Source: Staphylococcus phage vB_StaM_PB50. From it: a stretch of 64,000 bases of DNA. The translations under genes were made by a program, and so were the position numbers. This document shows, one piece after another, positions 1,394 to 64,000 of the stretch. The DNA lies in sequence record OR770614.1. One strand, given 5' to 3'. Each line of letters opens with the position of its first letter. The first letter of the stretch is position 1. Under the pieces are notes generated by a model. It worked only from the letters and a program-made list of their open reading frames with translations. It made no database searches and was not told the origin of the DNA.

Positions 1394-1909
1394 ATGGCTG
1401 AAATGAAAAATAGTAGAGATGTATTAATCGGAGAAGAAAAAGATATTAGAGATTTACAATTATTAATGAGAATTAGAAATAATATTATGAATTATGTAGA
1501 TGTAGAAAATACAATTGATATTATTCGAGATGTAATTAATGATTCTGAAAACTTTAGCTTTAGATCTAAACAAGCTGAAAAATTTATTGATGTTAAAAAA
1601 CCTGTATTTGTTATTAAATTAGATGATAGTGAACTATCTGCTAAGAATAAACAAAGCTTTGAAGGTAGTGAAAGTGATTATCAAAGTTATATAGATAATT
1701 ATGAAAAAGATGTAGCTGATAAGCTTGATAGAGAAGTTTTAAAATATATAGGTAAAGCTATTTTTGATTCTATTAAAGATGATAGTGAATTAGATAGATT
1801 ATTAAAAGATAATGAGCTAGAAATGAAAGATTTAATGATTACAAATATTTATGTGTATAAATTATCAGATCCTTATACTAATGCAATCAATCTTTCATTA
1901 TTTATTTAA
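1394..1909 (+). CDS. hypothetical protein
   Basis: 171-aa ORF, start overlaps stop of upstream ORF (translational coupling); no motif. Confidence 0.5.
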   Translation: MAEMKNSRDVLIGEEKDIRDLQLLMRIRNNIMNYVDVENTIDIIRDVINDSENFSFRSKQAEKFIDVKKPVFVIKLDDSELSAKNKQSFEGSESDYQSYIDNYEKDVADKLDREVLKYIGKAIFDSIKDDSELDRLLKDNELEMKDLMITNIYVYKLSDPYTNAINLSLFI

Positions 1910-1988
1910 TACATGAATACTATTAAAACTAGTAAAACATTCTCTTATAATAATAAAAATAAGAGCGAAAGTTTGGTGAATATTCATA

Positions 1989-4985
1989 ATGGAAGATAAA
2001 GATAAAAATCTCTTACAAATAAGTGAAGAGATGAATTCTATTAAGTCTAAGATAAATTCTTTAGTTCAAGATCAAGATAGTATTAAGAATTTATCAGAAG
2101 ATAATAAGAATAAGATTAATGTACTTAATGAAAATCTGGATAATATTGATAAAGAAAATGATAACTTAATAGAAAAATTAAGAAATTTAGATGGTAGTCA
2201 TGATATTGATTTAGATCTTTCTAATTATGTTACACTTGATACACTTAAAACAGAATTAAGAAAATATCAAAAATTAAGTATTGACTATATTGATAGATTA
2301 GCTGAAGGTGGTTGGGATTCTGATATTAAAGGTAATTTAGAAAACCTTAATGGCAGAGTCTCAGCTAATGAAGAATCAATTTCTTCAACTATGTCTAAAG
2401 TTAATAAATATGATTCAACTATTCAATACTTAAGCACTAAGGTTGAACAAACAGCTGAGTCTATTAAGAGTATTGCTACTGATTACACACTTAATGAAAT
2501 TAATCAAAGTATTACTAAATTAGAATCATTTAGAGAACAAACAGCTAGAGTTTTACAAGATACAGTTACTAGAGCTGATATAGATACTATGAATAATAAA
2601 GTAACTGAATTTGAAAGTCAAGTATCTCAGTTTGCAGATTTAATAGAACAGACTGTTTCTAAATCAGAAATTGACGGAATTACTATTGGTGGTAAAAACT
2701 TACTAGAAAATTCATTAGCTATTAAAGGTAATTGGTTATTATACCCTGAAAGTTTATCTTCAACTAAAGAGAATGCTTTAACATTTGGTCAAGATAATAA
2801 CGGTAAGAGTTATTTTACTATTAATACCGATGGAATAGAAGGAGAAGTTGGAACTATAAGCTATAATTCTTTCCCTTTAAAATATAATGAAACTTATACT
2901 ATTTCATTTGATTTTAGATCAGATACATTTAATAGACTTGATCATTGTTACTTCATTGATCCTTCAGGTAATTATACTACACCTATTGCTGAAAAATATT
3001 TAGATATTGATGAAGAATGGCATAGATACTCATTTGTATATAAACAAACTTTAACTGGAAGAAATAGTACAAAATTATTAATTGGTGTAGATACTGATTT
3101 AAATCAATTAAATGGTACATTTGATATATCTAGTGTTAAAGTTGAAAGAGGTAGTGTATCATCTGACTGGACTCCTGCTCCAGAAGACTTTGATAATATG
3201 TTAGAGAATTATAATAAAGATATCAATAATAAAATAGATAATATTGAAGAAAATGCTATTGGGTTAGGTGATACTGTTACTGAAGCTTTTAAAGATGGTA
3301 TTATATCTAATGCAGAAAAAATAGCTATTGAAAAGCAAAAGAATATTATTGATAAAGATAAAAAAGAAATAGATCAAATATTTAATTCATTATATGCAAA
3401 TAAAATGATGACAAATAGTGTTAAAACTGAATTGAAAAATAATTATGATTTATTCAATGAAAAATATAATATATTACTACAAGATATAACTAATACAATT
3501 TCAGATGGAATAGCTACTAAAGAAGAAGTAGCTCAATTTAATACAAATTTCTTAAGATATAATGAAGCTCAATCAAATATTAAATCATCTATTCAAAAGG
3601 CAGTAGATAATATTTCTAATGGCTATGCAGTTGATGAAGCTAGTAAAATCACTGTAGGTGGAATGAACTTAGTAAGTTATGAAAATATTTTAGCTATAGG
3701 ATCTGCAACTCTAAATAAGAATACTTATAAAGAGAACGGTGAAATGAATGTAGCTTTAACTGCTAATGGACAAGGTATTAAATTTAAATTAGATAAAGTG
3801 AGAAATAGACGTGAACATGTATTAGGTTTTAATTTAGAAAAGAAAACTGGTACACTTACAAATGTTGATATTAATATTCCTAATGCTTCTGTAACTTCTT
3901 GTTCTGTTAATGGTAATAAAATTGGAAGTGATTCTAGAAGTATTACATTTAACGATACATCATCATTGACATTTATTGAAGTTGTATTTATACCTAATGA
4001 CAGTTTCACAACTAATACTCCTACAGAAATCGTTATTAATCGTAATGGCACATTCCCATTATCTGTAGATGTAGAAGGGTTAAAAGTGGAAGAAGGTAAT
4101 AAAGCTACTGCTTGGCAACCTTCTATTAAAGACAGTAATGCTAGAATTACTAATATGGAAAGTAGAATTAGTCAGAATGAAAAGAATATAGATTTAAGTG
4201 TAACTAAAGAAACGTACAATGCAGATAAATCTAAAATGGAAAAAATGGGATCAGCTTTATCTATTTTAGCAGATGGTATTAGTATGTCATCTTCATCTAA
4301 TGATAAATTGTCTTCTTTTGATATTGATCCTAATAGCATTAAATTAAAATCTAAAATGGTTGATATTAATGATGGCGATGTAATAATTTCTAATGGTAAA
4401 GCTACTATTAAAGAAGCTTCTATTACTAATTTAATGTCTAAAAATATAGTTGTCCAAACTATGTTAGATGCAATGGGTGAAGTTAAAGGTGGTATTACTA
4501 TTAAACGTCCTGATGGAGGTTACTTAGTATATAATGGTATGCCAAGATTTACTACAGCTTATGTGCGTTCTGAACCAGGTGTGCAAGATTTAATGTCTAA
4601 TGGTACTCCTAGATTTAAGAATGTTGGTAATGCATTTATGTTTAGTGATAAGACTACCGGTAAATACTTCAGACGTGCTATGACAATGTATGGTCAACAT
4701 GAAACTAGATGGTTGCATATAGGTATTTGGTATGCTACTCCTCAATGTGGTATTGATATTAAAGTAGATTCATTTAATGACCAAAATGGAGTATTCTTTG
4801 ATAAAACTGTGTCTATACCTAAAGATACGTCAACTAGTGTAACTAAGACAAAACATAAAGAAATTATTGTAGATATGGGTATTCCAGCACAATCTATAGC
4901 TTCTATAGCAATTCGTGCAAGAGTTAAACCTGGTCAAAAAGGTAATGCTTGGATTCTTAACTCATATGTTTATGGTAGAAACTAA
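1989..4985 (+). CDS. tail fibre / receptor-binding protein
   Basis: 998 aa; N-terminal ~230 aa coiled-coil-like with short repeats; two internal ~200-aa lectin/CBM-like repeats each ending in the Firmicute phage tail-fibre motif (VERGSVSSDWTPAPED; VEEGNKATAWQPS); distinct C-terminal head domain. Confidence 0.7.
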   Translation: MEDKDKNLLQISEEMNSIKSKINSLVQDQDSIKNLSEDNKNKINVLNENLDNIDKENDNLIEKLRNLDGSHDIDLDLSNYVTLDTLKTELRKYQKLSIDYIDRLAEGGWDSDIKGNLENLNGRVSANEESISSTMSKVNKYDSTIQYLSTKVEQTAESIKSIATDYTLNEINQSITKLESFREQTARVLQDTVTRADIDTMNNKVTEFESQVSQFADLIEQTVSKSEIDGITIGGKNLLENSLAIKGNWLLYPESLSSTKENALTFGQDNNGKSYFTINTDGIEGEVGTISYNSFPLKYNETYTISFDFRSDTFNRLDHCYFIDPSGNYTTPIAEKYLDIDEEWHRYSFVYKQTLTGRNSTKLLIGVDTDLNQLNGTFDISSVKVERGSVSSDWTPAPEDFDNMLENYNKDINNKIDNIEENAIGLGDTVTEAFKDGIISNAEKIAIEKQKNIIDKDKKEIDQIFNSLYANKMMTNSVKTELKNNYDLFNEKYNILLQDITNTISDGIATKEEVAQFNTNFLRYNEAQSNIKSSIQKAVDNISNGYAVDEASKITVGGMNLVSYENILAIGSATLNKNTYKENGEMNVALTANGQGIKFKLDKVRNRREHVLGFNLEKKTGTLTNVDINIPNASVTSCSVNGNKIGSDSRSITFNDTSSLTFIEVVFIPNDSFTTNTPTEIVINRNGTFPLSVDVEGLKVEEGNKATAWQPSIKDSNARITNMESRISQNEKNIDLSVTKETYNADKSKMEKMGSALSILADGISMSSSSNDKLSSFDIDPNSIKLKSKMVDINDGDVIISNGKATIKEASITNLMSKNIVVQTMLDAMGEVKGGITIKRPDGGYLVYNGMPRFTTAYVRSEPGVQDLMSNGTPRFKNVGNAFMFSDKTTGKYFRRAMTMYGQHETRWLHIGIWYATPQCGIDIKVDSFNDQNGVFFDKTVSIPKDTSTSVTKTKHKEIIVDMGIPAQSIASIAIRARVKPGQKGNAWILNSYVYGRN

Positions 4986-25729: not shown

Positions 25730-25748
25730 TTATATTTATTTAATTTTC

Positions 25749-25868
25749 TTATCTATTTTTCTGACACTGTTTAGCTAATTCCCTCATCACCTTTGTTCTC
25801 TTTGCCCCTTTCTTTGCTACTGCTCTATTTCTCTTGTAATTTCTCACCATTTGATTTAGAATTTCTCT
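25749..25868 (-). CDS. small basic ORF (about 40 aa), uncertain
   Basis: AAAGGAGAAG RBS + ATG (MREILNQMVRNYKRNR...) in a locally GC-richer stretch just after beta-prime-N exon 2; preceded by hairpin GAATAACG...CGTTATTC. Confidence 0.3.
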   Translation of the reverse strand, partial: REILNQMVRNYKRNRAVAKKGAKRTKVMRELAKQCQKNR

Positions 25869-25935
25869 CATCTTTATCTTCTCCTTTATATAATAATAAG
25901 AATAACGATCTAATAAGACCGTTATTCTAAAAAAT

Positions 25936-26133
25936 CTATTCACTAGCTTTAATATCTACATTTTTTGATTTAGGATTATTTAATAAATAAACAGCTATTT
26001 GTGAGTCTTTATTAAGTGAGTAAGTTCTATTAAACAATCCATCATTATATGAAATTAATTGGTTTACTGGATCTTGTACTTTTAATTGTTCGTATTGTTC
26101 TTCTGAAAATAGTGCTATGATATTTAAAGTATC
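25936..26133 (-). CDS. RNA polymerase beta-prime N-terminal fragment, exon 2
   Basis: DTLNIIALFSEEQYEQLKVQDPVNQLISYNDG...QIAVYLL aligns to bacterial RpoC immediately after the catalytic NADFDGDQMAVHVPL (..LEAQLEAR..NNILSPANGEP..QDVVLGLYY); joins exon 1 to give GADYDG-D. Confidence 0.7.
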   Translation of the reverse strand, partial: DTLNIIALFSEEQYEQLKVQDPVNQLISYNDGLFNRTYSLNKDSQIAVYLLNNPKSKNVDIKASE

Positions 26134-27861
26134 CATTTATCTTAACCTACATTTAATATATAGGATGAGACTATATCTTATGGTTTCCCATTTATATATT
26201 TAGTCGTTGAACCTTATAATTAGGATGCTGATTAGTTTCAAACTGTCCCAGCAATTAATATGATTTATTGAAGGCAATAAATCAATAAATTTTATAATTC
26301 ATTAAAATATTTCCGCTATTCCAAATTCGATAAACACCCGATTGTTTTTTAGGAAAATCTGAGTATTCCATGTTTTCATTAATGTAATTTGGAAAGTATT
26401 CTGGTATAATAGATTTTTCAAATTCATGAACTGAATAAATATTTCTTTTAAAAATTATTTTACATGTAGATTTTAATTCTTTAACATAATTAAAACCAAA
26501 ATCTTTGAAATATTTACCATCAGAATAATCTTTATTTATTATTAAATCTATTGTTTTTATATTGTTTCTTTTGAAATATTTAATTGAATTACTTAATAAT
26601 TTAAATAAACCACCATTTACAATTGTTTTATTACTAAAAGCAAATTTTTCTAATTTAACTTTATTCTTATTTATATAATTATATGACATAATTGCAATTA
26701 TTTCATCATTAATTTTTAATGAAAAATTAATATCATGAGAGGAATTTATATAGGTACTATTATTTTTATAGAAGTTTTTAGCGTCATAATCGTTAATTAT
26801 TTCAAAATTACATTCTCTAGCATTTATTTTCTTTTCTTGAAAATAATCTATAGAATACAATATCCTATTAATTATTAAATCTTTTTTAAACTCGTAATCT
26901 AATGAGTTAATAAAATATATTTCAATATCAAAATTATTTTTAAAAAAATCTTTCTTATGTTTATGATATTCTTTATTTTTCATTTTATCTGAATGATAAT
27001 AGTATCCATTAAATTCAAATCCTATTTTTTTATCTGGAAAGAATAGATCTACTTCATATATTTGATCATTAAAAGAGAATCTTTTGTTATTTAAAATAAT
27101 TCCTTTATATGATTCTTTTATATATTTTATTAATTCAATTTCTTGATTAGATTTAATATTTTTACAAAGAGGACATCTATATCCTTGTTGAAAGTCATTA
27201 ACTCTTACACTATAAATATTACCACATTTTTTATGTTTTATTGGATATTTTTCTTTATTATTGAATTTATAATTTAAATCCAACCATTCATATTCATTAC
27301 CATCTTTAGATTCAGATAATATTTTTATTAAATAATTTTCATCATCTTTATAATAATATTTACCTCTTTTTTTATTTGAACAAAAAGGACATCTTCTTTT
27401 CTTATTTCCCAAAAATAAGCGTGGTTCTACTTTATATTCATTTCCGCATATTTCATGTCTTAATAAAACTTTATCGCTACCATTTTTATTAAAACCTTCT
27501 ATATAAGTATAATCTTTATTTTCTTTTTTAATTTCTTCAAAAAAGTCTTTATCCGATATATTTTTATAATTTCTAGCTTTTTTATTCCCTTCATTTTTAA
27601 AACATTTCGGACATCTTCCTTTTCCTTCATTTAAGAAAATATTACCTTTAGATACTCTATATTCTTCACCACAAATTTTATGTTTTAAAATAAAAGGCTT
27701 TGAAGTTCCCTCATAATTGCTTATTAATTCATAATTATTATTATCTATATTTTTTATTTTGTTTATTACATCTTCTTCTGTTAATTTAGGTGGCATAAAC
27801 TCATCCTTTCAATTAATTATTAAGGAGGTTTATTTAAATTTATTTTTTATTGATAATTTTT
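26134..27861 (-). mobile_element. group I intron in beta-prime gene (HEG-containing), about 1.73 kb
   Basis: last exon-1 nucleotide U, intron ends ..AAAUG; 3' 145 nt contain R (GGUUCAACGACUAAAU) and S (AAGAUAUAGUC) P7 elements homologous to the mini-introns in beta-C; contains 504-aa ORF with own RBS. Confidence 0.7.
26282..27796 (-). CDS. intron-encoded putative homing endonuclease (3 zinc ribbons + Vsr/EDxHD-like PD-(D/E)xK domain)
   Basis: three repeats of C-G-x-x-Y...C-P-x-C zinc ribbons; YEVDLFFPDKKIGFEFNGYYYHS matches the Vsr/DUF559-type nuclease core; GAAAGGATGAG RBS inside intron. Confidence 0.6.
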   Translation of the reverse strand: MPPKLTEEDVINKIKNIDNNNYELISNYEGTSKPFILKHKICGEEYRVSKGNIFLNEGKGRCPKCFKNEGNKKARNYKNISDKDFFEEIKKENKDYTYIEGFNKNGSDKVLLRHEICGNEYKVEPRLFLGNKKRRCPFCSNKKRGKYYYKDDENYLIKILSESKDGNEYEWLDLNYKFNNKEKYPIKHKKCGNIYSVRVNDFQQGYRCPLCKNIKSNQEIELIKYIKESYKGIILNNKRFSFNDQIYEVDLFFPDKKIGFEFNGYYYHSDKMKNKEYHKHKKDFFKNNFDIEIYFINSLDYEFKKDLIINRILYSIDYFQEKKINARECNFEIINDYDAKNFYKNNSTYINSSHDINFSLKINDEIIAIMSYNYINKNKVKLEKFAFSNKTIVNGGLFKLLSNSIKYFKRNNIKTIDLIINKDYSDGKYFKDFGFNYVKELKSTCKIIFKRNIYSVHEFEKSIIPEYFPNYINENMEYSDFPKKQSGVYRIWNSGNILMNYKIY

Positions 27862-28974
27862 ACCATCATAGTCTGCACCCATACCAGCAAGTATATTATT
27901 ACTGATACCTACTACTGATGATTCTATATCTTGAATTATATCTTTAATTTTTAATATTTGAACTGAGCTTTCACTAATACTGGGATTTCTATTTAAAATA
28001 ACTCTCATTCCATTTTCAGTTTTATCAACTAGTTCTCTCATATATTTATATACTTTAGGATTAAATGTATCTAATGCTCTGTCTAATATTTCTTCACCTT
28101 TAGCTAAAGGAATATTTTCTGTTACATACATTAAATTTGCTAAGATAGGTTTATATACTTCTAAGAAGATGGTATAATTTAATCTAATTTCATTTAATTT
28201 AAGGTCAGGTGCTGGAACAATTACTGAACGTGCAGAGAAACCAACACGACTACCCATTAGTAATTTACGAATAGTTCCACCTTTACCTTTAATATTCTCA
28301 TTAATTACACGATCACTAATATTAATACTATCATCTTGAATTTTACTTAATAGATTTAATTTTTGTAACTCTACTGAATCATCTGTATAATGTCTATCAA
28401 GTTCTTTAATACTATTACTATGAGCAATTAATAAATTATAATCTTTATTAATTTCAGAATGTCTAAAAGTTTTAGTAGCTTTATTAACTGTAGCAGGTCT
28501 TAATTTAGGACTAAATACAGTTACATAATTTTGGAATAGTAAATCAGATAAATACCATTGTACTACTCTATTGTAATCTTTAGTTTTACGTTTTTCACGT
28601 TTAACTTCTTCTTTAAGAATTTTTAAGAAATTCTTTCTAAATTCAATTAAACCAATATAAGAGTTATGATCATCTTCAGGTTCAATTACATTACCATTTT
28701 CATCAATAGGTTTTTCAGAACTAATAATTTCTTGGAATCTTTTATTACCAATTAATTTTTTAACACGTTCATAACCTAACGGATTTAAAATATAATTATT
28801 ACCTAAATCTACAATAGCTTCATTAGTAATATTATCTGCTTCTGAATCAGGACCGAAGATTTTCTCACTGAAGATACCATCTTCAGTGAAATCACCTTTC
28901 TTATCAATTGATTCATGATTAGTTACAACTGGAACATTTTCTAAATCCTTTTTCTTGAGTAAAAATCTAACCAT
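27862..28974 (-). CDS. RNA polymerase beta-prime N-terminal fragment, exon 1
   Basis: GIFSEKIFGP (cf. GLFCERIFGP), VFSPKLRPATV (cf. PPDLRP), GKGGTIRKLLMGSRVGFSARSVIVPAP (cf. [23 protein letters not shown]), NRNPSISESSVQ (cf. NRAPTLHRLGIQ), ends ILAGMGADYDG (cf. NADFDGD); ORF track read-through KNYQ-stop is intronic. Confidence 0.8.
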
Positions 28975-28977
28975 AAC

Positions 28978-30600
28978 TTAATCTTCTCCTTCTTCTACAA
29001 TTTCTTTAATGTCCATAATAACTTCCTGATCATCATTTTCTTTCTCTAATTTATCAATATTTTCAATATCTTCAATTTCTTTGATATTAGGTTTATTTTC
29101 AAAATAGAATGAACCATTCTCACCAGGATCTTTAACTTCACAGAATGGAGTTAACGTACGAGTAATACCTGGATTATTTGATGAAGTAGCAATCAAATCA
29201 ATTCTACCGAAATAAGTGTTATTGATATTGATTGTTCTAATAGATGGTTTACTAGTGTCTACAGCTGATTGTGGACCTGCTTTAGTCATTTTAAGAATTC
29301 TAGTAAATAAATCAATTGTATTAACTGCATTAGAATAACGTATACCATCAGAAGTTCCAATAGTTTTCAATAGATAATCTCTAGGTACTCCTGAGAATAA
29401 ACCTTTAAGGTTTTTAATAGTACGTTTTTTATCTGAGAAGTTAATCATACGGTAAGATGTATCAGAATTTTTTCTATTCAGTGGATAAGTTAAGTATTCT
29501 AATACTCTTAATCGTTTATTAGCTAAATCTGTATTATCTAATAAGTTAAGATTATCAAAGTTCTTAAACATGTATTTAACCACATGATAAGTTGATTCTT
29601 TATCTTCTTTTTCTAATCGTGATATAGCTTGAGTACGACTATCTAATATACGATCAAATGAAAGTATCATTGAATTCGCTTTATCTATTTTAGTGTCAAT
29701 ATTAGTTGAACCACTGAAGATAGAACCTAAAGCCTTTAACCAGAATTCTCTATCGTATATTTTATCTAATCCAGCTCTCATTCCTTTGAATAAATCTTTA
29801 ATACAAAGGATCATAGAATTTCTATAACGATCATCAACATCTAACCATTCTTTTTCAACTTTTAAAGAAAGTTTATTATTAATTTTAAAGTAATAGTAAT
29901 TATCTTCTTTATCATCATTAATATCTATTACTTCACAATGGTCTTTAATTTCTAAAAATTCAAATGTTTCGTCAAATCCCATTTTTGCAACAAAGAACAT
30001 AAATGCTGGAACACTCTTATTTTTATTGAACACTTCTAGATATAGAGTTCTCCCTCTTTGGAAATTAGACATCTTATTATCGTCATCCATAATAGTGTCT
30101 TTTTTAGAACCATTGACTGATAGTGGTTGCAATAAGTTTTTCATTACTACAGTACTAGCTTTTGGTTTATAAAATTCAGCATCAGCTAATTGTAGAATTG
30201 GGAAAAATTTGTTATTATTGATATAGTAGTATTGACCTTCAATAAGTTCAGGGAAATCTAATTTGTGTGTATATTCTTCTTTATTACCTTCTGAATCTTC
30301 AAATTCTACTGTAATTTGAACTTCCAGTAATTTAGATTCTTCAACATTGATTTTTCTATAATCTTTAGATTTAAGTTGTTTATCTGTCATTTGATTATAT
30401 TCATAAACCTGACTTGGTGAAACAACTTTACAATCTAAGAATTTAATTCCTTTAATAAATTCTACTGATCGATAAATATCTGAAATGATTTTTTCTAAAC
30501 TTTCATTTTGTCTGAAATAAATTACGTCTTCGTTAAATGGTTCTTTTTTGCTAATGTCTTCGTTGATGTTCTTTGTAACTTTACTTAAGTATTTACTCAA
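28978..30600 (-). CDS. RNA polymerase beta N-terminal fragment
   Basis: 540 aa, TTG start after GGAGAGTG RBS; ANKRLRVLEY (cf. HKRRISALG) and IRTININNTYFGRIDLIATSSNNPGI (cf. [27 protein letters not shown]); stop overlaps start of beta-prime-N. Confidence 0.75.
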   Translation of the reverse strand: MSKYLSKVTKNINEDISKKEPFNEDVIYFRQNESLEKIISDIYRSVEFIKGIKFLDCKVVSPSQVYEYNQMTDKQLKSKDYRKINVEESKLLEVQITVEFEDSEGNKEEYTHKLDFPELIEGQYYYINNNKFFPILQLADAEFYKPKASTVVMKNLLQPLSVNGSKKDTIMDDDNKMSNFQRGRTLYLEVFNKNKSVPAFMFFVAKMGFDETFEFLEIKDHCEVIDINDDKEDNYYYFKINNKLSLKVEKEWLDVDDRYRNSMILCIKDLFKGMRAGLDKIYDREFWLKALGSIFSGSTNIDTKIDKANSMILSFDRILDSRTQAISRLEKEDKESTYHVVKYMFKNFDNLNLLDNTDLANKRLRVLEYLTYPLNRKNSDTSYRMINFSDKKRTIKNLKGLFSGVPRDYLLKTIGTSDGIRYSNAVNTIDLFTRILKMTKAGPQSAVDTSKPSIRTININNTYFGRIDLIATSSNNPGITRTLTPFCEVKDPGENGSFYFENKPNIKEIEDIENIDKLEKENDDQEVIMDIKEIVEEGED

Positions 30601-45236: not shown

Positions 45237-45305
45237 AATAAAAGTAATGATGAAATTAATCATCATTACTTTTATTATATTTATTTTGAATCTTCTTTAA
45301 TTTCT
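45237..45305. repeat. direct repeat copy B
   Basis: see copy A; includes the genuine 3' end (..KEDSK-stop) of beta-C. Confidence 0.65.
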
Positions 45306-45673
45306 TTAACTAGATTATTTATTTCTCTAGGTGATAAATCTTTAATATCATCTACATTTTCGAATTTTTCCATTAAGAACTCTAATTGATCTGGAGAAAG
45401 ATCCATAATTGAATGAAGATCTTCTTCTCCTGCTTTATTATAATCAATACTAACATTTAGTGGACTAAAGTAAGCATTAAGTACTTTAGTGTTATTATTT
45501 TGATATCTCTTTTCAAATGAAGTATTTAATTTAAACGGATTACCTGTATATAACTCTACTAATAGACGTTTTCTTAAGTCTTCATTATTAGAGTACATAT
45601 TAGTTAATTCATTAATAGCTTTGATAGATCCACCGATCATCATGTTAGTTGTTTCCATCTCACCGCAGTTATT
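45281..45673 (-). CDS. RNA polymerase beta C-terminal fragment, exon 4
   Basis: exon begins NNCGEMETTNMMIGGSIKAINEL (cf. RpoB ..GGQRFGEMEVWALEAYGAA..); ORF-track Met at 45658 is internal. Confidence 0.6.
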   Translation of the reverse strand, partial: NNCGEMETTNMMIGGSIKAINELTNMYSNNEDLRKRLLVELYTGNPFKLNTSFEKRYQNNNTKVLNAYFSPLNVSIDYNKAGEEDLHSIMDLSPDQLEFLMEKFENVDDIKDLSPREINNLVKEIKEDSK

Positions 45674-45833
45674 CTAAATATTATTATTTAGCTAGACTAT
45701 ATCATTACCATTTAAGGTAGAATATATTTAGTCGTTGAACACTAATTAAAGTGATGCCGATTAGTTTAATACTCTTCTCAGCAATTAATATTCTTTACAT
45801 TTATACATTTCTATATAACGGAGCCTTTATTTG
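45674..45833 (-). mobile_element. compact ORF-less group I intron (about 160 nt), beta-C intron 3
   Basis: 5' exon ends ..CUCAGAGU with IGS GCUC 12 nt inside intron (G.U at splice site); R GUUCAACGACUAAAU and S AAUGAUAUAGUCU; ends ..AUUUAG. Confidence 0.65.
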
Positions 45834-46491
45834 ACTCTGAGAGGATTGTTGTTTATTCTTGATCTATAGAACTTAGAATCGGGTGTTCGTGTGGGAATAC
45901 CACTGTAATTATTAAAGTCAATTGATTTTGCACTTAATTTCCCACTAGGCTCGTGTTTTAACTTCAGGTGATACAAATCTCCAACCATAAATGTTCTATT
46001 ACTAACATCTAGTCGGTTTTTCTTAATATTGTATTTATTGAATAAGTATCTGATTTGTTCAGATTCAATATTATCAAAGAAAGGTGCTTGATGAAGTACA
46101 ATACCATTTTTAATAAAGTCTTCAATAGCTTCTTTAGTCTCTTCATTATCTAAACTATCAAATAATTTTACATAATTATCATAAGATACTTTATCTGCAT
46201 CTTTGATATATTCTAATAAATATTCTTTCTGCTTATTAACATCATCTAACTTACTAATACGATGTCTAATAACGCTTGAAATATGATTTAATTCTAATTC
46301 AACTAATGCTGAAGGATTTCCTCTATTAATAATACCCATATTATTATGAATTAAGTCTACTCTTTTCTTAATAGGGGTTTTATTATCTTTTGTGAAATCT
46401 TCTCCATCAAATTCAGTAATCATTGGCATTTCATTATCTGGAACAATCTTAGCTACTACACCTTTTCCACCGTACCTTGTGCTTATTTTTG
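45834..46491 (-). CDS. RNA polymerase beta C-terminal fragment, exon 3
   Basis: (G)SKISTRYGGKGVVAKIVPDNEMPM...DLIHNNMGIINRGNPSALVE (cf. [41 protein letters not shown]) and FMVGDLYHLKLKHEPSGKLSAKS (cf. [20 protein letters not shown]). Confidence 0.75.
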
Positions 46492-46675
46492 CATTTGTGT
46501 TAATGAACTTCATATACTTTACTAAGAAGATCAGACTATATCATTACCTTCATATAAGGTAGAATATATTTAGTCGTTGAACACTATTTATAGTGATGCT
46601 GATTAATTTTATAATTCTCAGCAATTAATATTCTTTACATATAAATTTTCATTCATAAGGGACCTATTAATTTGA
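46492..46675 (-). mobile_element. compact ORF-less group I intron (about 184 nt), beta-C intron 2
   Basis: 5' exon ends ..CACGGAU, IGS GUCC in AAUAGGUCC; R/S elements; 3' end ..ACAAAUG; splicing joins PLVHG-SKISTRYGGKG. Confidence 0.65.
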
Positions 46676-47242
46676 TCCGTGCACTAAAGGTTTCTTCTCT
46701 AATACTTTAACTCTAAATACGATTTTATCAAATTGATTTCCATCATATACAAGTTTAGCATTAGGATCAATGTAGCTCTTAAATCTATTATAAGTTCTAA
46801 TTAAATCATTACTAAATTTCTTCTTGCGTACAATATCATCAGTAACAGTTACAAATGTACGATAGAAGTGTTCTAAATCTTTGATATATTTTAAGAATTG
46901 CTCTGAGTACTTTTCATTCTCTAATTTTTCAATTGATTCATTATTAAGTACATCAATATCAATAATTTTACCATGTACCTTGTATGCATTATCACTTTCA
47001 ACAATTTTAGATAACATATCATTTTTAAATTTATGAATTAATTCGTCATAGTTTAGTCGTCTTGTTGCTGTTAATACACCATCTTTAATTTCTTCTCCAA
47101 CATCTGGAAATGCTTTATAACTTTCTTCATCACCATAAATATTTAAAGGAATATCATTTGTATTTATAGTTACATTAACTACATGAACGAAATAACTTGA
47201 CATTTTCTCAGCTAATGATTCTGATACAACAATACCATCTTC
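46676..47242 (-). CDS. RNA polymerase beta C-terminal fragment, exon 2
   Basis: begins EDGIVVSESLAEK.. (cf. FEDSILVSERV..), ends IVFRVKVLEKKPLVHG(S) (cf. IVKVYLAVKRRIQPGDK); ORF-track Met at 47203 is internal. Confidence 0.7.
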
Positions 47243-47403
47243 CTATAGGTTATAATTAATAAAATTATACCATAGACTATATCATTACCGTTTAAGGTAG
47301 AATATATTTAGTCGTTGAACACTGTTTTTAGTGATGCTGATTAATTTAATAACATCTCAGCAATTAATATTCTTTACATACATAAATTTCTTTATGCAGG
47401 AAC
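47243..47403 (-). mobile_element. compact ORF-less group I intron (about 161 nt), beta-C intron 1
   Basis: R/S elements and P6/P8-like hairpins as in introns 2 and 3; ends ..CCUAUAG giving in-frame stop TAG just before exon 2; exact 5' splice site uncertain (+/- few nt). Confidence 0.55.
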
Positions 47404-47943
47404 AAAGTTAATTTTATTCGTAAATCCTTTATCTGGTAAAAATACTGAAGTAGCGTTTGTACCATATTGGAAATTATTTGATTCTTCATCATAGTTTTGA
47501 TCTTTATAAAGTACTTCATTTTTATCAACAGTACTACCAATTTCTAAAGAATCAATTTTTTCATTTTGATATTTATTACCGAACTTCTCAGCTAAATGAT
47601 TAGCTTCTTCTCTAATAATAATATCATACTCATCATTATCTTTATACTTCACTAAATAGTATTTTACATATTTATTCTTTTCAAATATAAAAATAACTTC
47701 AAAATCTCTTTCAGCTTTCTTATAACCAGTTGAATATTTACCCACTTGATTCTCAAAACCAGTTTGAATTAATGGAGGTTCAGCTTCAGTTAATTGAATA
47801 CATTGACCTATATGTGAAGTGAACATTTGTGATCTATTACCATTAGTTCTATTAACATTAGGCATTAATAGTAGTTCCGATAAAAATTCATGACTTTTCT
47901 TATCTTCAATCTCTTGCATTCTTTGTGTTCTTTCCTTTGTCAT
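47404..47943 (-). CDS. RNA polymerase beta C-terminal fragment, exon 1
   Basis: GGAGAGTG RBS; LLLMPNVNRTNGNRSQM..PLIQTGFEN (cf. LMGANMQRQAVPLL.PLVGTGME) and GTNATSVFLPDKGFTNKINF (cf. GQNMRVAFMPWNGYNFEDS). Confidence 0.75.
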
Positions 47944-62650: not shown

Positions 62651-62659
62651 ATTTGATAC

Positions 62660-64000
62660 GCTTGCAACCTTGTCCGAACCTGAAAGTTGCGGTTATCCTA
62701 TATATTTCTATATAAGCCAGACTATATCTTAATCCCAGAGGGATCATTCCTGTTTCGATTTAAAGGGTTCTCACCTACTTTTATTTATAAAAGCCCTACT
62801 CCTATTGCGAAATTTCATCGCTTAAAGGATAGTCGTTGAACCAATTTATTAGTATTTTGTCTATTTTTTGCATTTCATAAAAGTTTATACGAAGTAAAGG
62901 TATTTCTCTTTCTTTACAAAAATTATTTTTTAATTCATCTCTTTTATTTATATCTTTATCTCTAAACATACTTTTTCTATGATTATTATTGTGTTGTCTT
63001 CCATCGAACTCTATTAAAGTATTATTTCCTGATACATAGAAATCAAATCTCAAGCTTTTTTTGTATTTTAAATCAGGAAATGTTTTTTCTTTAATATAAT
63101 CTATATTATTTTTTTCTAGAAATTTGATTATGTTTTTTTCTCCTCTAGAATATGTGTTCCCTAAACGTCTGTCTTTACGACACATAGGACAACCAGGCAT
63201 TTCATATATCCATCTAGGTTGTTTATAAAAAGTATGATTACATTTCACACATTTGAATTTATTTTTAGATGTATTTGTTTTATATTCATCCAGACATATT
63301 ATATCTCCATTAAACAAATTAGACAGCCTTTCTTCAAATTCTTCATGTGTTATAATTTTAAATTTAGGGGGATTACATACAGGACAACTATCACTTTTTC
63401 TTTTTCTTAGTTGTGATATGCTATTTTCAAATTCATGTCCGCATCTTTTATCTCTCATCACTATTTTAGAATTTATATTTTTGTAATCTCCACTCACATA
63501 CTCTTTATGATAAATATTTAATTTCTCGTTTATAGTATTAAAATTAGATTTTTTTAAACTTCTCTTTTTAATACCGCAATGTGGACATACTTTCCCTACT
63601 TTTATTTTTTCAAATGTTCTTTGGAATTCTTTATTACATTTTAAACATACAAAATCCATTTTAGTTTTTGTATTTACATATTCTTTAGATAATAAGATAC
63701 ATTTATTTTTTACTTCTTCTTTTACATCTTCAATACTAAAAAATTTTCTAGACATTATTAATCTCTCCCAATTTTATATTATAAAAAATAGTTAACTGGG
63801 TTAGATAAAATTGCTAATAAAATTGGTGCTGATTTCCCATTATTTCAATACTTAGGACTCTTAAAAAGAGCTTTTATTTCACCATATATCATCTCACTAC
63901 TTGTTTCTACTTTCGTTCCATTTAGGCAAGTGAGCTTTAGGGAGTTCCAGCTTTAAAGGAATTTATTCGACACTATATTGCTATAGTAGAAGGGGCCAAG
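62660..64000 (-). mobile_element. group I intron with HEG in beta-prime-C gene (5' end and upstream exon beyond window)
   Basis: R UGGUUCAACGACUAUCC and S UUAAGAUAUAGUCUGGC between HEG stop and exon; GC-rich structured 5' part at 63760-64000; ORF 62565..62747 is an intronic artefact. Confidence 0.55.
62802..63755 (-). CDS. intron-encoded putative homing endonuclease (3 zinc ribbons + Vsr/DUF559-like domain)
   Basis: three C-x2-C...C-P-x-C ribbons; LRFDFYVSGNNTLIEFDGRQHNNNHRK matches Vsr/DUF559 core (..VEVDGxxxH); GGGAGAGATTAATA RBS; paralog of 26282..27796. Confidence 0.6.
   Translation of the reverse strand: MSRKFFSIEDVKEEVKNKCILLSKEYVNTKTKMDFVCLKCNKEFQRTFEKIKVGKVCPHCGIKKRSLKKSNFNTINEKLNIYHKEYVSGDYKNINSKIVMRDKRCGHEFENSISQLRKRKSDSCPVCNPPKFKIITHEEFEERLSNLFNGDIICLDEYKTNTSKNKFKCVKCNHTFYKQPRWIYEMPGCPMCRKDRRLGNTYSRGEKNIIKFLEKNNIDYIKEKTFPDLKYKKSLRFDFYVSGNNTLIEFDGRQHNNNHRKSMFRDKDINKRDELKNNFCKEREIPLLRINFYEMQKIDKILINWFNDYPLSDEISQ

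Follow-up and report, generated by a model that had tools for sequence, protein, structure and literature searches.

Intron disruption is frequent among the RNA polymerase (RNAP) genes of jumbo phages (Korn et al., bioRxiv 10.1101/2020.12.14.422802). According to that study, the β'-N gene of the non-virion RNAP (nvRNAP) is disrupted in phage AR9 and intact in MarsHill; the introns of Staphylococcus jumbo phages were predicted there through protein alignments, and the mature AR9 mRNAs are cited there as experimentally determined. In AR9 (KU878088), the gene g270 is annotated as two joined exons around an intron that encodes the HNH endonuclease g271, and the five-subunit enzyme purified from infected cells contains its product gp270, a subunit of ~48 kDa (PMC5449584). 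What is said of AR9 here draws on its GenBank annotation, on PDB sequences and on papers that cite Lavysh et al. 2016. The orthologous gene of Staphylococcus phage vB_StaM_PB50 lies on the minus strand of a 64,000-nucleotide stretch of its genome (record OR770614.1), called the window below. With a probability of about 0.9, this gene is interrupted in its catalytic loop, at GADYDG|D, by a mobile group I intron that carries a Hef-like homing endonuclease.

Two minus-strand open reading frames (ORFs) hold the pieces of the gene. The ORF at 28974..27847 encodes 375 amino acids and its C-terminus reads ...ILAGMGADYDG followed by KNYQ and a stop, while the ORF at 26136..25936 encodes 66 amino acids and begins with M-DTLNIIALFSEEQYEQL. 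When position 27862 is joined to 26133, the two are in frame and yield GADYDGDTLNII. Exon 1 (27862..28974, minus strand) thus comprises 371 codons ending in GADYDG, with U27862 as its last base, and exon 2 (25936..26133, minus strand) comprises 65 codons and the stop, starting with the GAU of the third catalytic Asp and continuing DTLNIIALF.... The insertion between them (26134..27861, minus strand) is 1728 nt long, follows the exon U27862, and has G26134 as its last base; its G+C content is 20%, against 23.5% for the window. The joined product is a protein of 436 residues that reads ...GMGADYDGDTLNIIALF....

A sequence-only reading of this DNA had proposed this arrangement: a first ORF running into the catalytic loop and four codons beyond it, a second opening with the residues that follow the loop in RpoC, an in-frame junction that restores the loop, an insertion bounded by an exon U and a terminal G, and a triad of metal-binding aspartates split by the intron. 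All of these points are borne out by the ORF list, the sequence, the translation, and the relatives. Uninterrupted 1308-nt matches to β'-N were found in PALS_2, S6, DC4, MarsHill, Madawaska, and SA1 by tblastn against phage genomes, a search that also places the window among the PBS1/AR9-like Staphylococcus jumbo phages. Exon 2 is contiguous with exon 1 in PALS_2 and the five other phages. The insertion is delimited to the base by PALS_2, where the window segment that ends at 27863 and the one that starts at 26133 fall on the adjacent positions 2612 and 2614. By comparison with the intron-less orthologues, it lies between the Gly and third Asp codons of the catalytic DxDGD loop.

The protein restored by the junction is a β'-N subunit. 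Exon 1 matches Pfam RNA_pol_Rpb1_2 and phrog_2987 and aligns with AR9 gp270 (PDB 7S01_d), and the alignment of exon 2 with the same protein runs to residue 424. The spliced product as a whole matches chain d of PDB 7S01/7S00, the AR9 nvRNAP β'-N subunit, with E=1.8e-70 over residues 18-424. This alignment crosses the junction, placing GADYDGDTLNIIALF opposite GDYDGDVLNIIPVF, with GADYDGD here where AR9 has GDYDGD. The NCBIfam model rpoC (TIGR02386) is matched by residues 151-403 of the joined protein, again spanning the junction at 371/372. The similarity to the AR9 gp270 orthologues extends over the full length and includes the double-psi β-barrel with its DxDGD loop. The two genes share 37% amino acid identity, and the boundaries of the AR9 intron, GGT|AAGGCG...AAATG|GAT, correspond to GDYDG|DVLNII, which is the identical site. 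The sequence-only reading had presented the PB50 intron as an extreme case of a selfish element choosing the most conserved site of an essential enzyme. Its site does lie within the Asp triad, but it is not unprecedented, because the annotation of g270 has an intron at that very position.

The alternative to splicing is that the gene is truly split into a 375-residue fragment ending in GADYDGKNYQ and a 66-residue peptide, or encodes a dead subunit, with the RNA core a relic. The last three bases of the intron do form an in-frame AUG (26136) before exon 2, the corresponding pieces in the related phages Machias and AH12 are annotated in GenBank as separate or truncated coding sequences, and β and β' genes are naturally split elsewhere in jumbo phages (PMC7598289). 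Such a split, however, would cut off the third metal-binding Asp from the other two, and the AR9 orthologue combines an intron at the same site and joined exons with a full-length subunit in both the purified and the solved enzyme. A decayed relic is also hard to reconcile with P, Q, R, and S elements that are invariant in the PB50 copy and with core helices that can all form. AR9 late transcription reportedly requires nvRNAP, which counts further against an unspliced gene. PB50 appears to be an isolated, named phage, so its essential β'-N gene should be functional. A gene that is never spliced is therefore scarcely credible. Self-splicing of the β'-N intron is very probable on indirect evidence: the junction restores a conserved protein in frame, the AR9 exons are annotated as joined, and the AR9 subunit is full length.

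The RNA of the insertion belongs to a very compact family of group I introns. The elements P (AAUUGCUGGGAC), Q (AAUCAGCAUC), R (GUUCAACGACUAAA), and S (AAGAUAUAGUCU) all fall within its last ~148 nt; the sequence-only reading had pointed to canonical R and S elements near the 3' end, and P and Q accompany them. The catalytic core P3-P8 spans 26169..26261 (all core coordinates are on the minus strand), and every helix, including the P3/P7 pseudoknot, can be located. P3 pairs 26261..26258 with 26197..26194, P4 pairs 26253..26248 with 26231..26226, P5 pairs 26244..26241 with 26237..26234, and P6 pairs 26224..26222 with 26214..26212. P7 is formed by 26205..26201 and 26173..26169, and P8 by 26191..26188 and 26183..26180, closed by a GAAA loop. 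The remaining segment (26134..26168) holds the P9 hairpin, in which 26164..26158 pair with 26152..26146, and the 3' tail UUAAGAUAAAUG, which leads to the last intron base, the omega G at 26134. The P9 hairpin appears in both the minimum-free-energy and the centroid fold, and the MarsHill and AR9 introns at this site have similar tails (...AAAUG|GAU).

Several lines of evidence support this core. A covariance model of P3-P8 made from 17 copies (CM R1) matches the β'-N intron at 26168..26268 with 86.2 bits (E=5e-14) and finds exactly four copies in the window, the others at 45694..45798, 46533..46638, and 47274..47377. The Rfam model RF00028 (Intron_gpI) matches the 3' core at 26146..26289 with 21.9 bits (E=9e-4 for a 211-nt search). 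Covariation was assessed over 29 base pairs in a model alignment of 21 sequences to which P7 had been added as a pseudoknot. Standard pairs fill 92.6% of the cells, a share that drops to 27-47% once the 3' partner is shifted by 1-3 columns, both sides have changed in 15 of the 29 pairs, and none of 500 shuffles reached the observed covariation score, in an alignment that leans towards structure because it was fitted by the model. The covarying helices are P3, P5, P6, and P8; P4 and P7 hardly vary. A model-free table anchored on the invariant segments keeps P3 in a constant register, with pairs such as AGAAUAU/AUAUUCU, AUAUUAU/AUAAUAU, GAAUUU/AAAUUC, and AUACU/AGUAU. BLAST places matching cores at 25 positions in Machias, 24 in AH12, 24 in LY01, 9 in MarsHill, and 8 in Madawaska.

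The intron would recognize its exons through an internal guide sequence, UAUU|GCCUUC, at 26270..26279 (minus strand), located by a pairing scan and by a layout shared with related introns. P1 consists of GCCUUC (26275..26270) and the 5' exon end GAUGGU, paired in five of six positions, with the splice site marked by a G26275-U27862 wobble; in P10, UAUU (26279..26276) is matched to the 3' exon start GAUA. The guide stands 8 nt before P3 and downstream of the endonuclease ORF. Its assignment rests on this position and on orthologous introns, since pairing score alone does not discriminate: a scan of the whole intron for a G-initiated P1 with P10 had its top match inside the ORF, and shuffled sequences often scored equally well. 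In the paralogous virion RNAP β' gene of MarsHill, a 158-nt ORF-less copy at GADFDG|D has the guide UAUAUU|GCCGU 6 nt before P3 and no P2. In a 271-kb metagenomic jumbo-phage contig (ERZ28563612 scaffold_50, locus L016), ACAUU|GCCAUCG directly follows the ORF stop and forms a perfect 7-bp P1 and a 5-bp P10. The AR9 virion gene g145 has GUCGUAG, complementary to the exon end GACUACGAU, after its Hef-like ORF g146, and the terL intron of Madawaska has GCCGGC, complementary to the exon end GCCGGU, after its ORF. The endonuclease ORF and the leader that precedes it thus probably lie inside the P1 loop. On this view, the part that acts as a ribozyme would be limited to ~146 nt (26279..26134), with the P1/P10 guide, P3-P9 without a P2, and the omega G26134.

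The sequence-only reading had instead assigned the 5' part of the ribozyme to the first ~70 nt of the intron. The 5' leader (27797..27861, minus strand) is 65 nt long and A/U-rich, and it contains the four read-through codons with their stop and the motif GGAUGAG; a pairing scan found no convincing guide in these 65 nt. A guide with P1 and P2 in this region, either AUUAUC at intron nucleotides 5-10 or GCCA at the start of the ORF, would put the ORF between P2 and P3 and make the hairpin UUUAUUG-CCUU-CAAUAAA (26281..26264) P2. This hairpin stands where the P2-containing mini-introns have theirs and appears in the minimum-free-energy and centroid folds, the Rfam alignment puts it in the P1 slot of the model, and AUUAUC is able to pair with GAUGGU. 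That pairing, however, places U-A rather than U-G at the splice site, includes two G-U pairs, and leaves no P10, while GCCA offers 4 bp only, also without P10. The hairpin is not conserved in the L016 intron, and the four related introns place their guides directly before P3, after any ORF, with P1 helices of 5-7 bp. The upstream arrangement is improbable on these grounds. P1 and P2 drawn from the first 70 nt were rejected for poor pairing at the splice site, the lack of P10, and the position of the guide after the ORF in related introns.

The ORF inside the intron (26282..27796, minus strand) encodes 504 amino acids and has its own ribosome-binding site, the Shine-Dalgarno-like GGAUGAG seven bases before its AUG. 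Both this and its identity as a homing endonuclease had been proposed from the sequence alone, and homology and fold support the assignment. The protein matches phrog_559 (3.8e-60) and phrog_3339, labelled 'homing endonuclease' (2.6e-23). Its closest annotated relative by tblastn is the AR9 'Hef-like homing endonuclease' g146, with 29.7% identity over 100% of its length, and its closest metagenomic relative is 39% identical. A protein search returned it at 100% identity as 'homing endonuclease [Staphylococcus phage vB_StaM_PB50]'; a literature search on vB_StaM_PB50 found no paper. It contains three DUF4379 treble-clef zinc ribbons (residues ~30-215), a Vsr/DUF559-like nuclease domain (~215-315) with the PD-(D/E)XK-derived Vsr-like fold, and a C-terminal GNAT-fold domain (~320-504). 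An AlphaFold model built from 20 homologues is confident (predicted local distance difference test score 84.8). Two homologues match the Pfam 'Mom protein family', one of them above the cut-off.

Hef-type enzymes belong to the Vsr-like EDxHD family (Taylor et al., PMC3239194). Among the 20 homologues, D250 never varies, and conservation is at least 90% for E219, E261, K281, and the zinc ligands. H268, in YYYHS, is present and falls outside the near-invariant columns; the last Asp of the E-D-H-D set has no counterpart assigned.

The alleles of related phages show how variously this gene is occupied. Machias and AH12, whose flanks are 98-99% identical to the window, lack the PB50 intron at DYDG|D. 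They carry two tandem ORF-less group I introns of 182 and 180 nt at G|AD|YDGD (Machias, MW349128, L001 2599-2966; AH12, L002), which flank a 6-nt micro-exon, GCCGAT, encoding Ala-Asp; removal of both gives the same protein. At this place, the GenBank records of the two phages show no more than a truncated coding sequence. LY01 has a 161-nt intron elsewhere in its β'-N gene, at LNR|NPS (L004 2488-2648), and the MarsHill 158-nt intron described above (L011 2985-3142) is P2-less; both are apparently complete. A 255-kb metagenomic phage (ENA ERZ28563757 scaffold_25, 1745-4491) has an uninterrupted β'-N gene (NADFDGDVLNIV) and a free-standing homologue of the endonuclease, 37% identical, that starts a few bases past the β'-N stop. 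Intron-plus, intron-minus, and free-standing-endonuclease arrangements thus all occur at this gene, and the β' catalytic loop of jumbo phages has at least four insertion points within ~15 nt (G|A, D|Y, D|G, and G|D). Compared with Machias, the exons differ once in the first 737 nt of the coding sequence and 22 times in the last 574 nt. This rise in divergence towards the site may be a signature of co-conversion, a suggestive and weak sign that is not decisive because the whole region is a mosaic with other divergent patches.

These observations fit a model in which the guide UAUU|GCCUUC would form P1 with the end of exon 1, U27862 being the wobble base, and P10 with the first bases of exon 2. 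The P2-less P3-P9 core of ~146 nt would bind guanosine in P7 and carry out two transesterifications, with G26134 as the omega G. The ligated mRNA would encode the 436-residue subunit with its Mg-binding triad intact, while the 504-residue endonuclease would be translated from its own ribosome-binding site within the P1 loop. The endonuclease would cut or nick intron-less alleles of co-infecting relatives near the site, and repair would copy the intron in, which is homing.

The intron might instead splice and no longer be mobile, its ORF being inactive or re-purposed as a maturase-like helper or a GNAT/Mom-like DNA-binding protein. The position of H268 outside the near-invariant columns, a nuclease domain without a direct match to a sequence family, relatives no closer than 29.7% in the phage collection and 39% in metagenomes, and an unexplained GNAT fold speak for such a loss of mobility. 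Yet all 504 codons are intact in an intron of 20% G+C, and E219, D250, E261, K281, and all zinc ligands are conserved across the homologues. Homologues at the same gene, either intronic (L016) or free-standing (in the 255-kb phage), are typical of active homing genes, and the growth of exon divergence towards the site, a weak sign, resembles co-conversion. An immobile intron is accordingly unlikely, and current mobility of the PB50 intron can be held with moderate confidence.

Several results weigh against an intron of this kind. No match in the whole window was returned by Rfam at the gathering threshold or at E≤0.1, and none of group I at E≤10 on 25800-28100. The sequence-only reading had proposed a covariance-model search as a check; it found the group I core in the 3' part, as the 86.2 bits of CM R1 show, while the Intron_gpI score of 21.9 bits stays below the Rfam gathering threshold of 50 bits, which no family member scored attains. 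The ORF-less members reach 44.9, 42.3, 38.8, 32.4, 26.8, and 20.1 bits over model positions 1-253, and such sub-threshold matches pass the filters only on narrow sub-ranges. The low scores can be traced to the 1.6-kb ORF in the P1 loop and to the very reduced periphery, and the 50-bit threshold is a database cut-off, not a defining property of group I RNA. In thermodynamic terms, the folding of the 3' 148 nt does not stand out (z=-1.45). The proposed P1 contains a U-U mismatch, its pairing is not significant over the whole 1728 nt, since scores of at least 10 are common in shuffles, and the local hairpin UUUAUUG/CAAUAAA would sequester the guide. For the endonuclease, phmmer found no match among PDB sequences, including PDB 3R3P, a search of NCBIfam found none either, the isolated nuclease and C-terminal domains gave nothing useful against Pfam at E≤10, and the putative catalytic residues are assigned by conservation only.

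The surroundings of the gene differ between phages on one side. Upstream lies the nvRNAP β-N gene (30600..28978), as in Machias. Directly 3' of β'-N, Machias has a 576-nt gene (CPT_Machias_003) that is absent from the window; a comparison of 25738..25937 with Machias 3372..4013 (L017) shows a 64-residue ORF (25943..25749) in its place. This downstream region is a hotspot of insertions and deletions adjoining the intron-bearing gene.

The other three copies found by CM R1 belong to the nvRNAP β-C gene (45281..47943, minus strand), which is split by three ORF-less mini group I introns at 47415..47243, 46674..46492, and 45833..45666 (minus strand), of 173, 183, and 168 nt. They interrupt the gene at GFTN|EDG, within the Ser codon of HGS|KISTRYGGKGV, and within the Val codon of PLRV|GEME. 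The triple-spliced product of 712 residues matches AR9 nvRNAP chain C (7S00_C) with E=5e-137 across all three junctions. A fifth group I intron, of a different subtype, occupies ~62651..64000, its 5' part lying beyond the end of the window. It has an AR9-like core (GGUUCAACGACUAUCC...AAGAUAUAGUCU) that contains an extra insert, and its ORF (63755..62802), which encodes a 317-residue zinc-ribbon and Vsr-like (LIEFDGRQH) endonuclease, overlaps the R element at its 3' end. The 3' exon starts with EASALRAIGSQDILRELMG, which we take to resemble the segment after GEME in bacterial β subunits. The 64-kb window thus holds at least five group I introns, none of which was returned by standard Rfam scans. 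Beyond it, the Madawaska terminase large subunit gene (L012 2480-2880) has an intron of this family that carries an endonuclease, and a second mini-intron core comes immediately after it; that gene was not reconstructable by Korn et al. (10.1101/2020.12.14.422802). The exact Q-R-S pattern with compact spacing occurs in at least 120 viral contig stretches among IMG/VR loci, many of them on contigs of 200-400 kb.

These introns have practical consequences for annotation. The β'-N subunit of PB50 is encoded by one gene of 436 codons, and those of Machias, AH12, and LY01 are likewise single genes, rather than a truncated coding sequence next to a small hypothetical protein. Rfam-based scans miss the whole family of very compact group I introns. 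For ribozyme research, the family is a source of minimal cores that occur naturally and covary richly, and its layout, with a 1.5-kb ORF in the P1 loop, is conserved. Understanding of how such introns work is left unchanged; for specialists, the interest lies in the alternative occupancies of one loop, the 6-nt micro-exon, the ribozymes of 158-183 nt, the ORF-in-P1 layout, and the GNAT/Mom-like domain.

The occupancy of the catalytic loop in near-identical phages, with one endonuclease-bearing intron at G|D in PB50 and two ORF-less introns at G|A and D|Y in Machias and AH12, invites a more speculative interpretation. GADYDGD may be a contested landing strip, with the PB50 endonuclease as an interference weapon, the neighbouring ORF-less introns as immunity, and the ribozymes among the smallest; this is a tentative proposal and a rather doubtful one. 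The endonuclease would attack intron-less Staphylococcus jumbo phages, by analogy with PhiPA3 gp210, and the ORF-less introns would protect their hosts by breaking its recognition site. If this is true, the P2-less or P2-minimal ribozymes of 158-183 nt (161 nt in LY01) would rank with the smallest self-splicing introns of group I found in nature. The Azoarcus intron, of ~205 nt, is the usual small extreme of group I; a literature search for the smallest known group I intron found no statement on it. These Staphylococcus jumbo phages are studied as therapeutic candidates and are able to transduce, and an endonuclease that targets an essential polymerase gene could sway how mixed infections end, an effect demonstrated with PhiPA3 and PhiKZ.

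A comparison with described introns separates what is shared from what is particular to PB50. The ORF-less mini-introns of Machias, AH12, LY01, MarsHill, and Madawaska have P3-P8 cores 73-76% identical to that of the window and carry no ORF. I-Bth0305I (PMC3239194) resembles the PB50 protein in being encoded by a phage intron and in having a Vsr-like nuclease domain. It has NUMOD/HTH DNA-binding modules and an ORF in P5, whereas the PB50 protein has three zinc ribbons and a GNAT-fold domain. In PhiPA3 gp210, too, a group I intron that encodes a homing endonuclease interrupts a multisubunit jumbo-phage RNAP gene beside conserved acidic residues (aspartates), and this endonuclease nicks the intron-less allele of PhiKZ and confers a competitive advantage (Birkholz et al., Science 2024, PMC11620839). 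That system differs in its virion β subunit, its HNH enzyme, and its hosts among the Pseudomonas chimalliviruses, and the function that is experimental there is a prediction for PB50.

Two close parallels share the ORF-in-P1 layout. The second intron of AR9 g145, the virion β'-N gene, encodes g146, which like the PB50 endonuclease starts MP(P/R)K, and it too has its ORF between the 5' splice site and the guide and lies in the β' catalytic loop. In contrast to PB50, it interrupts a paralogous virion gene, one codon upstream (GGDYD|GD), and has a larger core. The L016 intron shares both the gene and the insertion site (NADFDG|DVLNII) with the PB50 intron, and its endonuclease (P0007), 37% identical to that of PB50, is likewise encoded in the P1 loop with the guide after the ORF. 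It differs in being unannotated, in its perfect P1, and in a post-ORF ribozyme of 183 nt with an AR9-like insert, compared with 146 nt here.

Finally, the AR9 g270 intron, at the identical site of the orthologous gene, belongs to group I like that of PB50, and it too has R and S elements and encodes an endonuclease. Its ribozyme is larger, with an extra insert after P7 (GACUAUCGAAA...), and is undetected by CM R1, and its endonuclease is an HNH enzyme of 184 residues where that of PB50 is a Hef-like protein of 504. Judged by their sequences, what is new in PB50 relative to AR9 is a different ribozyme subfamily and a different endonuclease family at one and the same site.

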